Virus record (IMG/VR): IMGVR_UViG_2778261156_000002
Direction: 5' to 3' (one strand)
From: a virus
Lineage: Duplodnaviria > Heunggongvirae > Uroviricota > Caudoviricetes
DNA length: 4,383 bases
The first letter of the stretch is position 1; every line of letters starts with the position of its first letter. Shown piece by piece: positions 1-4,383 of this stretch. The position numbers were made by a program, and so were the translations under genes. The notes under the pieces are model-generated. The model worked only from the letters and a program-made list of their open reading frames with translations. It was not told the DNA's origin and did no database searches.

Positions 1-47
1 GGTTTACCTGCACCGTCTTTCAGTACACCTGAAATCTTTACTGCCAT
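1..47 (-). CDS. stf: Side tail fibre protein, N-terminal fragment (first 15 codons; gene continues beyond window start)
   Basis: ATG at 47..45 on the minus strand preceded by a purine-rich GGGGTGA. Translation MAVKISGVLKDGAGK matches my recall of the N-terminus of lambda Stf (orf-401). Position immediately downstream of lom matches lambda gene order. Only 47 nt are visible, so the call rests on a short match plus synteny. Confidence 0.6.
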   Translation of the reverse strand, partial: MAVKISGVLKDGAGK

Positions 48-57
48 ATTCACCCCA

Positions 58-85
58 CAAAAAAGCCCGCCTGAACCAGCGGGCT
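58..85 (-). terminator. Rho-independent terminator downstream of lom
   Basis: Inverted repeat AGCCCGC (64..70) / GCGGGCT (79..85) with an 8-nt loop. On the minus strand the stem is followed directly by TTTTTT (plus-strand A-run 58..63... actually 59..64 region). It sits 27 nt after the lom stop codon. Confidence 0.6.
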
Positions 86-111
86 GTCATAACACTGTGT
101 TACCTGGCTAA

Positions 112-711
112 TCAGAACTTATAACCAACACCCACGATGAACCCGTCAGTGCGCCAGTCGCCACTGCCGGAGCCTTCATAAGCGACATCAATGGCCACCG
201 ATTCGGTCGGGTTAAACTGCACGCCAGCTCCCCACGCCAGAGACGTGTTGCTGTGGTGACCGTCATCACTTCCGGTCAGCACATCATGCGTTTTCCCCTT
301 GTTGTCAGTTACGCGGAGATAATCCCCGGAGAAAGTCGACACACGGCTGTAAGCCACACCCGCCATCGCATACGCGCTGAACCATTCATTCACGCGCACA
401 GACGGTCCCGCCATCACGCTGAACCAGCGGTTACGCACGGAATCCTCATGCCAGCGGGTATCGCTGTAATGCGTTTTTTGCTCATCTTCAGCGTTGGCAT
501 AACTGAATGACGTAATCAGCCCCAGCGTGTCCGTAAACTCATAACGGTATTTCACGTTAATCCCGTTCAGATTATCGCTGCCGGGAGCGTTCGTACGGGC
601 ATGAAGATACCCTGCGCTCAGTGTGGCCTGCTGCTCAGACGCCCATGCAGGCGCACCGGATACGGCCAGACAGATGGCTGCGGACAAAATGGCTGCATAA
701 ACTTTACGCAT
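112..711 (-). CDS. lom: Lom outer membrane protein (Ail/Lom/PagC/OmpX family small beta-barrel); prophage lysogenic-conversion 'moron'
   Basis: 199-aa ORF. N-terminal signal peptide MRKVYAAILSAAICLAVSGAPAWA with an AxA cleavage motif. Alternating amphipathic beta-strand pattern and a C-terminal ...GVGYKF ending in Phe, typical of outer-membrane beta-barrels. The sequence closely resembles lambda Lom as I recall it. Sits between J and stf as in lambda. Confidence 0.93.
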   Translation of the reverse strand: MRKVYAAILSAAICLAVSGAPAWASEQQATLSAGYLHARTNAPGSDNLNGINVKYRYEFTDTLGLITSFSYANAEDEQKTHYSDTRWHEDSVRNRWFSVMAGPSVRVNEWFSAYAMAGVAYSRVSTFSGDYLRVTDNKGKTHDVLTGSDDGHHSNTSLAWGAGVQFNPTESVAIDVAYEGSGSGDWRTDGFIVGVGYKF

Positions 712-715
712 AATT

Positions 716-721
716 ACCTCT
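716..721 (-). promoter_or_regulatory. Ribosome-binding site for lom
   Basis: Minus strand reads GAGAGG-TAAT-ATG, i.e. a Shine-Dalgarno-like element 4 nt upstream of the lom start codon. Confidence 0.5.
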
Positions 722-734
722 CGCTTTTCTGCAA

Positions 735-760
735 TAAAAAAGGCGCCATTTCTGGCGCCC
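735..760 (-). terminator. Rho-independent terminator downstream of J (between J and lom)
   Basis: Perfect GC stem GGCGCC (742..747) / GGCGCC (754..759) with a 6-nt loop. On the minus strand it is followed by TTTTTTA (plus-strand A-run 736..741). It lies 19 nt after the J stop codon. Confidence 0.65.
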
Positions 761-778
761 GTATTGGGGTTATAAAAT

Positions 779-3700
779 TCAGCTGATACTGATGCCTGCG
801 GTGGCTTTCTTCATCACCACAACCAGCAAATCGCTGATACTTGCTGTGGGATACCAGTCATTTACCAGCCATGCTGACACCGAAAACTCCAGCGTCATGT
901 GGCCGCGACCAGCTGGCATATCAATAACACCACTGTAAATCAGCGTATTATCCAGCGCGGTATGGTTATAAATTTCAGCACCGTTTTTCCGTACTATCAG
1001 GCGGCATGAGGAGTAGATATCAGTATGATCTTGCTCATGTTTAGCGCCACTGAATGCCACCGCCGGGATAACAATTTGCCGGTCAAACGGCTGATCGTCA
1101 TAAACCCTGACGGTAATGGTCCCTGATGGCCACCGCTCCGGTGCACGGGAGTCCCGGGGGAAAGCCTTACCCACTGTTTTGACAATATCACCTTCAATCT
1201 GGTTGGCTGACAGTTTCCCCTTAATCTGACAGTTCTCATTAATCGTGACATTGTTGAGCGTCCCGGCGTTCGCATTCACACTGCCACTGATATCTGCATT
1301 TTTAGCGGTCAGCTTTCCGTCTGATGTCAGGGAAAATACCGGAGGACTGCCACCGCTGGTAATGGTGGGGGCTGTCAGGCGCTTCAGGAACACGTCGTTC
1401 ATGAATATCTGGTTGCCCTGCGCCACAAACATCGGCGTTTCATTCCCGTTTGCCGGGTCAATAAACGCGATACGGTTAGCGGCAACCAGAAACTGGCTCA
1501 GCTTGCCTTCCTCCGTGTCCTCCATGCTGAGGCCAATACCCGCGACATAATGTTTGCCGTCTTTGGTCTGCTCAATTTTGACGCCCCACATGGCATTCCA
1601 TTTATCGTTAGCGTCCTTCCACTCTTTCGAAAACTCATCCAGTCTGCTGGCGTTATCCTCCGTCAGATCAACTTTTTCCAGCAGCTCTTTACCGAGATGG
1701 GATTCGGTTATCTTGCCTTTGAAAAAATCCAGGTAACCTTCCGCATCATCGCTCGCCCGACCGACGGCCTCCACGAATGCCGATTTGCCAACGGTGTTCA
1801 CACTGCGAACGTAAAAATAATAATCATGGCCCGGTTTGATATTGATACTGGCGGCTATCCAGTACAGTCCCGTGCCAAGGTAGCGGGCTGTGGTTTCAAC
1901 CTGCCTGATATCGGTAATCCGCGTTTCCGAGAACCAGAACTCAAACTGTACCGTCGGATCATAAGCCGCAAGATGCGGCGTGGCAGTTATCTGAAAATAG
2001 CCCGGCGTCAGCTCAATCCGCGACGGCGCTGCCGGGGCGGCAATCCGGAACGATACCGACGCCGGATCGCCCTGCTGTCCCCACACATTTACCGCCCGGA
2101 CCGTCAGCGTGTAACGCCCCAGCGCCAGTTGCCTGAAGCGGTATGTGGTTTCCGTCGTCCGGGCCGTGCTGACCAGCCGCTCACTGCCGTCATCCGCTGT
2201 TACGGTCAGACGGAGCAGGAAGTTCACGCCCTTCACCACCTTCGGCGTGTCCCAGCGCGCCAGCACCTGATATTCCCCGCTGTCTGCGGTGACTTCGGCG
2301 GTCAGGTGCTGCACCGCTGGCGGCGTGACACCATTCACCGTGCCGCTCTGGTCGCCGTCAAAGTGCGCCCCGTTATCCACGATGGCCTCTTTTTCCGGTA
2401 CATGCTGCACGGCGGTGATGGCATACGTGCCGTCGTCGTTCTCACGGATACTCACGCAGCGGAACAGGCGCTGGCGCAGCGTCGGCAGCTTCAGCCCCCA
2501 CACGCTGTATCCGGCAACGCCGTCAGGAACACGGCTAACTTTCACCTTCACGCCGTCGGTGACGGACTGAACCTCCACGCTGACCGGATTGCCACTTCCG
2601 TCAACCAGGCTTATCAGCCTGGTGCCGGAGGATGGCAGCGTGATTTCACGGTCGAGCGTCAGCGTCCGGGTCTGGCTGTTTACCGCCAGCACGCGCCCGC
2701 CGATGCTGATACCGGCATAGTCATCATCACAGATTTCAATGACATCACCCGGCACATGGCGAAGCCCTTCTGCGCCCACGCTGAAGTCCACGGTCTGCGT
2801 TTCCAGCAGTTCTGTTTTAATCAGCCACAGCCCGGCGCGGTGTGCCTGCCCCCGGCTGGTACAGCCAAAAGCATCCATCTTCGTGACGTTACGACCGTAA
2901 CGGGCAATGGCCTGCGTATCCTCCACAAGCTCTGTCGCCGTCTCCCAGCCGTTGTTCGGGTCAATCCAGTTCACCTCAACGGCATTATGGCGGTCTTTCA
3001 GGGCGCTGAAGCTGTAGCGGAACGGCGCGCCATCATCCGGCATCACCACATTACTGCGGTTATAGGTCCACACCTTATCCGACGGTCGGTCCTGCACGAA
3101 CGTCAGCGTCTGCCCGTTCCATACCGGCATACAGCGCATCGCCGAGCAGAAATCACTGAGCACATCCCACGCCTTGCGCTGTGTGGTCAGGTACGCATTA
3201 CAGGTGATGCGCGGCTCCGTACCGCCAAAACCGTCCGGCACTGACTGGTCGCAGTACTGGCCGATGACATACAGCGCCCATTTATCCACATCCGCCACAC
3301 CAAGACGTTTCCCCATGCCGTAGCGTGGATGGGTCAGCATATCCCACAGACACCAGGCCATGTTATTGCTGTATGCTGGCTTAAACGTTCCGTCCCAGAT
3401 ACCGCTGTATTGCCGCGTCTGCGGGTTATAGTTCGACGGCACCTGCAGAATACGCCCGCGCAGATGATAATTACGGCTCACCTGCTGGCTGCCGAACTGC
3501 TCCGAATCCACCCGTACGCCGACCAGTGCCGTGTTCGGGTAGCACTGTTTCACATCGATGATTTCGGTGTATGACGACCAGAGCGTTTTGTTCTGCAGCT
3601 GGTCTGTGGTGCTGTCCGGTGTCATCCTGCGCATCCGGATATTGAACGGTCGCGGCGGCAGGTTATCCACCACCACCGAGGCCAGATACTGCGACGTGGT

Positions 3701-4187: not shown

Positions 4188-4196
4188 TAAACGACA

Positions 4197-4216
4197 AAAC
4201 CGCCCGGAGGCGGTTT
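4197..4216. other. Intergenic stem-loop between I and J (8-bp stem, 4-nt loop)
   Basis: AAACCGCC (4197..4204) pairs with GGCGGTTT (4209..4216). On the minus strand it reads AAACCGCC-TCCG-GGCGGTTTTGTCGTTT, so it is followed by a U-rich tract. Function unknown; could be an attenuator or an mRNA-stabilising or processing structure inside the late operon. Confidence 0.4.
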
Positions 4217-4233
4217 CACATAAACGTTTTTCA

Positions 4234-4383
4234 TCAGCGACCAATCACCACAACCTGACCACCATCCCCTTCGTCTGCCGTGCTGATCTCCTGAGAGACC
4301 ACCCGCGACCCCACGCGCATTTCACCGTACAGAACGGGCAGAACATTGCCCTGGGCAACCATGTTATCCAGTGAGGAGAAATA
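4234..4383 (-). CDS. I: Tail assembly protein I, C-terminal fragment (last 49 codons plus stop; gene starts beyond window end)
   Basis: Minus-strand translation from the window edge is YFSSLDNMVAQGNVLPVLYGEMRVGSRVVSQEISTADEGDGGQVVVIGR*, with the stop at 4236..4234. This matches the C-terminus of lambda gpI as I recall it. It is missing from the ORF track because the start codon lies outside the window. Confidence 0.88.
   Translation of the reverse strand, partial: YFSSLDNMVAQGNVLPVLYGEMRVGSRVVSQEISTADEGDGGQVVVIGR

Follow-up and report, generated by a model that had tools for sequence, protein, structure and literature searches.

The window, by which I mean the whole stretch of 4,383 nucleotides analyzed here, comes from a lambda-like prophage of E. 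coli and spans the distal end of its late (tail) operon, with the gene order I - J - lom - stf (Table 1). The four genes and all of the hairpins are on the minus strand. The window is 100% identical to prophages of four RefSeq E. coli chromosomes. The I translation ends in ...GGQVVVIGR before its stop codon, and the RefSeq label in an identical prophage is tail assembly protein. J matches lambda J (PDB 8iyk) over its full length, and the C-terminal receptor-binding domain PF12421 is present among its gpJ domains in Pfam. The stf gene, annotated in RefSeq as a prophage tail fiber N-terminal domain protein, shows 96% identity to lambda orf-401/stf in the last alignment window. The intergenic gaps are 67 nt between J and lom and 64 nt between lom and stf. 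Neither the Q gene nor the late promoter is included in the window. A 564-aa plus-strand ORF antisense to J, for which no Pfam match was found, was treated as an artefact.

Table 1. Positions of the genes, hairpins and spacers in the window (arrows run in the direction of transcription)
Feature	Position	Strand	Remarks
stf start: RBS GGGGUG and first 15 codons (MAVKISGVLKDGAGK...)	1..56	-	ATG 47->45
T2 U-tract TTTTTGT (UUUUUGU)	57..63	-	its end is 9 nt upstream of the stf ATG (47)
T2 stem-loop AGCCCGCT-GGTTCA-GGCGGGCT (RNA AGCCCGCU-GGUUCA-GGCGGGCU)	64..85	-	8 pairs, 6 of them G-C
lom 3' UTR UUAGCCAGGUAACACAGUGUUAUGAC	86..111	-	conserved; diversity 0.0065
lom, Ail/Lom outer-membrane beta-barrel protein, 199 aa	112..711	-	PF06316
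lom leader	712..732	-	Shine-Dalgarno GAGAGG (722->717)
T1 U-tract TTTTT-A-TT (UUUUUAUU; tail also given as TTTTTTATT, TTTTTATT)	733..740	-	
T1 stem-loop GGGCGCCA-GAAA-TGGCGCCT (RNA 3' arm UGGCGCCU)	741..760	-	8 pairs, 6 of them G-C
Spacer from J stop to T1 AUUUUAUAACCCCAAUAC	761..778	-	TTATAAC(C) motif, common to the 199-aa lom class
J, tail tip attachment / host specificity protein, 1131 aa	779..4174	-	4174->779; stop codon 781->779; Pfam gpJ domain set
I-J gap hairpin AAACCGCC-UCCG-GGCGGUUU (4216->4197), then UGUCGUUUA	4188..4216	-	
Tail assembly gene I, 3' end	4234..4383	-	ORF runs off the window; stop 4236->4234

The names lom and J had been given to these genes in an earlier sequence-only reading of the window, and both are borne out by Pfam. 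The J product has the full set of gpJ domains. The lom product matches the Ail_Lom family (PF06316) with E = 8e-124 and 411.3 bits (cut-off 23), residues 1-199 aligning to profile positions 1-199. Read directly from the translation, it has the signal peptide MRKVYAAILSAAICLAVSGAPAWA, followed by SEQ... (the junction being AWA/SE), and a C-terminus ...VGVGYKF typical of an outer-membrane beta-barrel. Among PDB entries it matches lambda Lom (9wso, E = 1e-48) and OmpX/Ail (about 1e-19), and an eight-stranded beta-barrel fold is very likely from these similarities. The protein is 45% identical to lambda Lom. Its scores fall short of the NCBIfam equivalog cut-offs for Rck (113 versus 258 bits) and OmpX (99.5 versus 176 bits), and it is therefore an orthologue of neither. 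Thus, Lom matches the family of the 8-stranded Ail/OmpX/PagC/Rck barrels (PF06316, PF13505) but, unlike them, is phage-borne.

As shown in Table 1, a hairpin lies between J and lom (T1) and another between lom and stf (T2). T1 begins 18 nt past the J stop codon, and its stem ends 29 nt before the lom ATG (position 711). Its folding energy is -15.1 kcal/mol (z = -4.9), and none of 200 shuffled sequences folded equally well. T2, which starts 26 nt past the lom stop codon, folds with -15.0 kcal/mol (z = -4.1). Each consists of a GC stem-loop with a short loop and a U-run on the sense strand, located in an intergenic region past a stop codon, as expected for an intrinsic terminator. A generic terminator scan found three sites in the window versus 3.8 ± 2.0 in shuffles, a count that is not significant alone. 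In a strict scan of both strands, which required a perfect stem-loop with dG of -12 or lower and six or more T among the 8 nt after it, exactly T1 and T2 were found in the window and nothing in 60 dinucleotide-preserving shuffles. T1 and T2 are also the two top-ranked sites across 13 kb of the source prophage. On the plus strand, there is no T-run beyond the T1 or T2 hairpin. Tandem late-operon terminators distal to lambda J were reportedly mapped by Luk and Szybalski in 1983.

The T1 structure is conserved among relatives even where its sequence is not. Compensatory (double) changes were found at four of the eight pairs, the stem variants being G-C to A-U and C-G to U-A, and 94.6% of the alignment cells are paired, versus 37-63% in slid registers. 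Some T1 alleles have an inverted loop, in which the central 8 nt are inverted. Wholly different hairpins occupy the T1 position in lambda (stem CGTCCG-GGAA-CGGGCG), in a Citrobacter prophage and in one further locus (L012). In nearly all of the variants and replacements, the stem ends 27-30 nt upstream of the lom ATG. The T1 U-tract is unchanged in the related intergenic sequences examined except two, namely L033 with a T-to-C change and lambda with a shorter tract. T2 is retained in lambda, Citrobacter and others and itself varies little; in a class with a 152-nt spacer (L094), a non-homologous 13-pair terminator stands in its place. The lom 3' UTR preceding T2 is identical in lambda even though the Lom proteins have diverged. 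Structural conservation is thus seen as compensatory change (T1) or as analogous replacement hairpins. Folding, the strict scan and conservation together confirm that lom is bracketed by two hairpins with U-tracts, one after J and one before stf, as the sequence-only reading had noticed. Judged by their sequences, T1 and T2 are genuine elements resembling intrinsic terminators, which lie on the coding strand and have been maintained in evolution.

Phage lambda (NC_001416, 18.9-19.7 kb) has the same gene order, J - lom - orf-401 (stf), with gaps of 61 and 64 nt. In lambda, too, a hairpin with a U-tract precedes the lom ATG by 29 nt and a second one lies immediately upstream of stf, while lambda Lom has 206 instead of 199 residues and lambda J has a different C-terminal domain. 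Stx-converting and other lambdoid prophages of E. coli (for example VT1-Sakai, JLK-2012 and Stx2a phages) share 92-96% DNA identity from the J end through lom to the stf start, keep both hairpins, have an annotated Lom outer membrane protein and differ only at the allele level. The terminator-flanked lom arrangement is therefore ordinary and already described, being known for lambda and Stx phages, and the present result matters little beyond confirming it; lom is a textbook prophage accessory gene.

Is the bracketing by terminators specific to lom? A third hairpin was found in the I-J gap, where a stem-loop of -13.3 kcal/mol (z = -3.7; none of 200 shuffles folded equally well) is followed by a T-rich tail. 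Lambda carries the same I-J hairpin with the loop TGCG. With this hairpin and its tail, J is bracketed too, in lambda as well as in the window, so that flanking terminators are neither peculiar to lom nor diagnostic of a moron. The sequence-only reading had called two flanking terminators the classic architecture of a moron, a claim that needs qualifying here: bracketing alone is no proof of a moron, because the essential neighbour J is bracketed likewise.

The lom promoter was then sought. The sequence-only reading had placed the upstream terminator about 24 nt from the lom ribosome-binding site. That figure is in fact the distance from coordinate 735 to the start codon, and only 10 nt lie between the end of the T1 T-tract and the Shine-Dalgarno sequence. 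It had also reported no convincing -35/-10 pair, and this was reproduced in two ways. A consensus promoter scan gave no minus-strand match near lom. A sigma-70 weight-matrix scan of the 400 nt upstream of lom, a method that can miss weak, activator-dependent or alternative-sigma promoters, found nothing above shuffles in the window, lambda and four other relatives; the best scores were 6.7 in the window and 5.0-7.9 in the five relatives, while the median best score of shuffles was 7.7-8.6. The TTATAAC(C) motif in the J-T1 spacer (nucleotide diversity 0.073) is not a scoring promoter. The TATAAC after the J stop codon lacks a -35 element, and a start there would fall upstream of T1. Two further candidates were rejected by eye: a TGGCGC-N-TTGCA sequence overlapping T1 has a spacing 3 nt too long for a sigma-54 site, and a PhoP-box-like pair upstream of lom falls in non-conserved J coding sequence. 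No promoter for lysogenic lom expression is known from any lambdoid phage. An independent lysogenic transcript of lom, if there is one, must start either in the 29 nt that separate T1 from the ATG or before a strong terminator, and both are awkward. The sequence thus leaves almost no room for such a promoter.

Published data on lom expression are diverse. Lambda lom was reported to be expressed in lysogens (PMC1151598, PMC7067206), while a lambda microarray study did not detect it in the lysogen and described the lom promoter as little known (PMC2147009). The expression of phi24B lom was described as constitutive and uncoupled (PMC3342100, PMC4651098), its level being similar with or without induction (PMC3342100), and O157 lomW rises upon stationary-phase entry (PMC2241611). 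According to PMC9836094 and PMC12366544, which cite the ribosome profiling of Liu et al. (2013), Lom rises strongly late in the lytic cycle. The claim that the cassette is insulated can hold only for unmodified RNA polymerase, given this late rise as those two papers relay it.

These features are probably best explained, and I hold this with good confidence, if lom is an accessory gene of the late operon whose flanking terminators block ordinary RNA polymerase in the lysogen and are read through by Q-modified polymerase. Q-mediated read-through of terminators across the whole late operon is established for lambdoid phages. The putative Rho-independent terminators stand a few nucleotides before the ribosome-binding sites of lom (T1) and stf (T2), with a weaker hairpin before J. 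While the prophage is repressed, ordinary RNA polymerase straying through J should stop at T1, and any transcript covering lom should stop at T2, so that lom would be uncoupled from its neighbours and stf-tfa would not be expressed. Termination at T1 and T2 in this prophage is a prediction from their structure. After induction, Q-modified polymerase would ignore the terminators and J, lom and stf would form one late mRNA, which would account for a high Lom level late in infection. The low lysogenic lom expression reported for lambda and Stx phages must then be due either to leakage through T1 or to a start, weak or non-canonical, that cannot be located by sequence. For termination in vivo, read-through and the expression pattern, this proposal draws on established lambda biology.

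It is possible, if doubtful, that lom is an autonomous moron, that is, a horizontally acquired cassette with its own promoter and with T2 as its terminator, transcribed mainly in the lysogen as an adhesion/serum-resistance conversion gene. T1 would then simply terminate the unit upstream, or be what is left of the end of an earlier moron. According to the account of Juhala et al. (2000) given in PMC3594210, a classic moron consists of a promoter, an ORF and a terminator and has a deviant base composition. The sequence-only reading of lom as a classic moron stands in part. A downstream factor-independent terminator of its own is present (T2, 85->57), and the label agrees with the literature, in which lambda lom is described as a moron expressed from the prophage or as a lysogenic-conversion gene (PMC3594210, PMC7067206, PMC1151598) and reviews list Lom among prophage-expressed moron products (PMC3594210, PMC7067206). 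The induction-independent level of phi24B lom also favours autonomy, and the behaviour of lomW suggests host-type regulation. On the other hand, the upstream element is a terminator almost touching the Shine-Dalgarno sequence, none of the six lineages has a sigma-70-like promoter in the 400 nt upstream (their best scores being below the shuffle median), and the base composition of lom does not deviate from that of J (GC 55.5% versus 56.6%; 57.3 ± 4.0% in 600-nt J windows).

The distribution and mosaicism of lom bear on the same question. It was found in 78 of the 79 loci that have this Stf N-terminus and enough upstream sequence, the sole exception being an IS200-type replacement, and 4806 of the 5426 complete E. 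coli genomes contain the region. Most sequenced E. coli carry this lom allele. Thus, lom is not sporadic in this lineage. No empty site without lom was found in 80 loci with the same Stf N-terminus, only the one IS200-type replacement. In HK97, stf follows J after a 207-nt gap with no lom between, which would suit an acquired cassette, but the flanks are not homologous and the J-stf gap has no hairpin; HK97 was hence rejected as a true empty site. The HK97 record does have morons with putative terminators annotated between I and J. The HK97/HK022 morons, as summarized in PMC3594210, resemble lom in being accessory genes between essential tail genes with a factor-independent terminator downstream, and they share expression from the prophage with it only insofar as this has been reported for lom relatives. 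Compared with that description, lom has no detectable promoter of its own, no compositional contrast and a nearly universal presence in its lineage. Moreover, the joint with lambda falls within lom and at neither end of the cassette: identity to lambda is 88-96% over the last ~100 nt of lom, T2 and the stf start, but 28-86% (mostly 28-68%) in 50-nt windows of the remaining lom sequence. The alignment indicates that the lom cassette is not one evolutionary unit.

I regard it as unlikely that the hairpins are instead punctuation of the late mRNA, i.e. processing sites or barriers to 3'-exonucleases through which the relative stability, and with it the dosage, of J, lom and stf is set, their resemblance to terminators being incidental since Q-modified polymerase never stops there. 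All three gaps of at least 59 nt, including the I-J gap without an accessory gene, do share one design: about 17-26 nt after a stop codon comes a GC hairpin with a U-rich tail, and some 10 nt further on a Shine-Dalgarno sequence with its start codon. The T1 U-tract and the lom leader also form a 29-nt block, reaching to the ATG, that is almost invariant (diversity 0.0012; one variable column in 59 haplotypes) and far more conserved than coding sequence, the diversity of lom being 0.089 at the third codon position and 0.026 at the first two. However, the long uninterrupted U-tracts right after the T1 and T2 stems are the signature of intrinsic terminators and are not needed by a stability hairpin. 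The terminator and mRNA-stability functions are not mutually exclusive.

The 29-nt block and the structurally conserved T1 have a slim chance of forming a dedicated regulatory leader for lom. An activator- or alternative-sigma-dependent start could overlap T1, or T1 could be a regulated terminator whose leak sets the lysogenic Lom level. Either option would explain lom expression from a repressed prophage without a recognisable promoter. That the palindromes act as DNA, as recombination joints or protein-binding sites at module boundaries of mosaic lambdoid genomes, is hardly plausible: modules are exchanged nearby (one Lom with at least four J C-terminal types), lom is mosaic relative to lambda, some T1 alleles carry the 8-nt inversion and an IS200-type element abuts the stf ribosome-binding site in one locus (L166), but the compensatory stem changes and non-homologous replacement hairpins keep no sequence-specific site, the T-tract lies on one side only, on the coding strand, and the recombination joints seen in a small sample fall within J and within lom instead of at the hairpins.

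What Lom does may be broader than first proposed. Adhesion and serum resistance, suggested for it from its family in the sequence-only reading, are still candidates but not the sole ones; a 2025 study reported that expression of lambda Lom gives a strong defence against lambda-vir (PMC12366544). Lom regulation gains some renewed relevance from this protection, and the short lom leader and the 3' UTR, both extremely conserved, are the places to look for it. PADLOC gave no match for lom. Genes for receptor blocking or superinfection exclusion adjoin receptor-binding protein genes in other phages, for example llp in T5 and cor in phi80/N15. By analogy, lom also adjoins a receptor-binding gene, J, its late expression is strong and the lambda protein defends against lambda-vir (PMC12366544), so lom may be comparable. 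It differs from llp and cor in the PADLOC result and in showing no J-Lom pairing. A matched pair of J receptor domain and Lom, expected if Lom blocks the cognate receptor, was rejected since one Lom type (94-98% identical) occurs together with at least four types of J C-terminal domain, which have identities of 41-61%.

The window was also searched for small RNAs. Rfam gave no RNA family at E < 1 except one spurious lncRNA match; therefore, there is no known small RNA in the window. The microRNA-size RNA 24B_1, located downstream of lom in phi24B, was set aside as irrelevant since the phi24B context differs, and it is absent from the analogous lambda region according to its authors (PMC4426718). 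The equally conserved 26-nt lom 3' UTR together with T2 has a likewise slim chance of giving rise to a 3'-UTR-derived small RNA.

Two hairpins followed by U-tracts, T1 in the gap between J and lom and T2 in the gap between lom and stf, lie where the sequence-only reading had placed them, and the gene order on the minus strand is I end, J, lom and stf start. The assignment of lom to the Ail/Lom family also holds over its whole length. A generic terminator scan gave three sites in the window against 3.8 ± 2.0 expected, that is, no enrichment. Under a stricter definition, in which a stem-loop had to be perfect, reach dG ≤ -12 and have six or more T in the next 8 nt, T1 and T2 were the sole sites on either strand of the window, and none was found in 60 dinucleotide shuffles. 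They also rank first and second across 13 kb of the source prophage. Thus, the two hairpins are real and not due to chance.

Features of the lom region, with nucleotide diversity from 59 distinct haplotypes of the class whose lom matches the window type (199 aa)
Feature	Coordinates	Strand	Description	Nucleotide diversity
Tail assembly gene I, 3′ end	stop codon at 4234	minus
I-J gap hairpin	4216→4188	minus	GC-rich hairpin with U-rich tail, dG -13.3 kcal/mol
J	4174→779	minus	1131 aa; complete lambda gpJ Pfam domain set
J, last 132 nt				0.163
T1	760→741	minus	GGGCGCCA-GAAA-UGGCGCCU, dG -15.1 kcal/mol, then UUUUUAUU	0.085 (stem-loop; changes mostly compensatory)
T1 U-tract to lom ATG	712-740	minus	29 nt; one variable column	0.0012
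lom	711→112	minus	199 aa; PF06316 (Ail/Lom) whole-length match, E = 8e-124
lom, first and second codon positions				0.026
lom, third codon positions				0.089
lom 3′ UTR	86-111	minus	26 nt	0.0065
T2	85→64	minus	AGCCCGCU-GGUUCA-GGCGGGCU, dG -15.0 kcal/mol, then UUUUUGU
stf (side tail fibre)	ATG at 47	minus	first 15 codons

Is lom a classic moron insulated by these terminators, as had been proposed from the sequence? A moron, as summarised by Cumby et al., is a gene that has been added, brings a promoter and a terminator of its own and differs in GC content from the genes beside it, and Lom is counted among moron products (PMC3594210). T2 provides the terminator. A scan for consensus promoters found nothing near lom on the minus strand. 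A weight-matrix scan of the 400 nt upstream of lom scored 6.7 at best in the window, while the best scores in lambda and four further lineages were 5.0-7.9, and in all six lineages the best score was below the shuffle median best (7.7-8.6), in agreement with the earlier failure to see a convincing -35/-10 pair. The gap between the T1 U-tract and the lom Shine-Dalgarno sequence is only 10 nt. The composition of lom is not distinctive (GC 55.5%, against 56.6% for J). Nor is its presence sporadic; lom is found in 78 of 79 loci with the same Stf N-terminus and enough upstream sequence, and the lone exception is a replacement by an IS200-type transposase. HK97 has J followed by stf with no lom between, but it was rejected as a clean empty site since its flanks are unrelated and lack a hairpin. 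The moron interpretation is thus only partly supported. On historical grounds an autonomous moron is plausible, but two of the features that define one were looked for without success.

J is also bracketed by terminator-like hairpins, since the I-J gap has its own, lying 22 nt 5′ of the J start codon and kept in lambda, where one base of the loop differs. The three gaps that measure 59 nt or more are built alike: stop codon, hairpin, U-tract, about 10 nt, Shine-Dalgarno sequence and start codon. Moreover, the unit is mosaic. In 50-nt windows, lom is mostly 28-68% identical to lambda, with one conserved stretch of up to 86%, while its last ~100 nt, the 3′ UTR, T2 and the stf start show 88-96% identity. 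A mosaic joint relative to lambda (L001; window ~1-215) lies within lom. One Lom type (94-98% identical) occurs with at least four types of the J C-terminal receptor-binding domain, which are mutually 41-61% identical (window 779-1183, 135 aa, and the loci L048, L087 and L090). The C-terminus of the window J is a closer match to PDB 9wca ('A8 gpJ') than to lambda J. The bracketing of J and the mosaicism weaken the idea of lom as a neat cassette.

The spacers on both sides of lom were extracted from 120 lom-containing loci of species-representative genomes and viral contigs. T1 was found in all J-lom spacers of the 199-aa class, with the stem versions GGGCGCC/GGCGCC, GGGCACC/GGTGCC and GGGCGTC/GACGCC, an extended AAGGGC... 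form, and further alleles whose central 8 nt are inverted (CAGAAATG vs CATTTCTG). Different hairpins occupy the place of T1 in lambda (CGTCCG-GGAA-CGGGCG), a Citrobacter prophage (AGCGCTC-ATTC-GGGCGCT) and another compared locus, L012 (GGGCACCT-CAGG-AGGTGCCT). The distance from the stem end to the lom ATG is 29 nt in lambda and most of the 199-aa class, and 27-30 nt overall. When 14 distinct spacers were aligned, 94.6% of the T1 cells were paired, against 37-63% in slid registers, and the unpaired cells are those of lambda, whose hairpin is three columns off register. Both sides have changed in four of the eight pairs, and the covariation score was reached by none of 500 column shuffles. T2 varies little and is kept in lambda and the Citrobacter prophage, while a second class of lom-stf spacers (152 nt, about 20 loci) has instead a non-homologous 13-pair terminator just 5′ of the stf ribosome-binding site. 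Retention of the structure while the sequence is replaced gives good comparative evidence that T1 and T2 function in RNA, as hairpins plus U-tracts of the intrinsic-terminator type. The diversity values indicate stronger constraint on the lom leader and the 3′ UTR, the latter being the same in lambda, than on the coding sequence. The U-tract and the ribosome-binding site account for part of this constraint, and the ribosome-binding site alone does not fully account for it. The hairpins might also be mRNA-stability or punctuation elements, which is compatible with their acting as terminators. A role in recombination at the DNA level is unlikely, because the stem changes are compensatory and the T-tract lies on one side only.

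Some variants were seen in particular loci. In L045, L049 and L067 (T1 at ~2452-2471 in locus coordinates), the central 8 nt are reverse-complemented, with CCATTTCTGG replacing CCAGAAATGG, which is a loop inversion preserving the hairpin. The 152-nt spacers, seen for example in L094 (3098-3251), have a long imperfect hairpin before the 13-pair terminator, and the stf allele that follows begins with MTVKISG. One viral contig (L166, 1-1600) has a cspA-like gene and an IS200/IS605-type transposase in place of lom, and the terminal hairpin of this element adjoins the stf ribosome-binding site at the usual T2 end.

The favoured reading is that lom is an accessory gene for an outer-membrane protein, set within the distal part of the late operon. 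In the repressed prophage, T1 and T2 would halt unmodified polymerase, so that lom would be uncoupled from J and stf-tfa would stay silent, while Q-modified polymerase would pass both after induction. Read-through of terminators by Q-modified polymerase is established lambda biology, and Luk and Szybalski (1983) reportedly mapped tandem lambda late-operon terminators distal to J. Such read-through would account for high late Lom expression, and low lysogenic expression may come from a weak or non-canonical start or from leak-through at T1. Two papers that cite a lambda ribosome-profiling study describe strong Lom expression at late stages of lytic growth (PMC9836094, PMC12366544). Standard examples of lambda genes active in lysogens include lom and bor (PMC1151598, PMC7067206), and the Stx phage phi24B expresses lom constitutively, uncoupled from induction (PMC3342100, PMC4651098). 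In one array study, lom was undetected in the lysogen, and its authors described the lom promoter as poorly known (PMC2147009). Lom expression confers strong defence against lambda-vir, and its proposed role is preventing non-productive adsorption (PMC12366544). Lambda Lom (206 aa) is present in the solved structure PDB 9wso (chain C; two such chains in the entry), and no J chain of 9wso was among the PDB matches to the window J.

The bracketed arrangement is already known from lambda and Stx phages, and the window adds a further allele of a prophage region that is almost ubiquitous in E. coli. Its bases 1-960 are 100% identical to prophages of four E. coli chromosomes in RefSeq. Of 5426 complete E. 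coli genomes, 4806 have related copies (median two per genome), which also occur in 222 phage records, chiefly of Stx-converting phages. The NCTC9088 prophage lies at the Qin/ydfJ locus and has the usual lambdoid tail gene order. A plus-strand 564-aa ORF antisense to J (window 1550-3244), with an arginine-rich translation and no Pfam match, is probably an artefact of J codon composition. The exact lambda J-lom junction was also found in low-coverage contigs of about a dozen assemblies of unrelated taxa (L013-L024 and others), including Neobacillus, Kitasatospora, Pseudomonas, Shewanella and Bradyrhizobium. Several of these contigs match the lambda genome in size (~48.4-48.5 kb), and the assemblies appear to be contaminated with lambda DNA.
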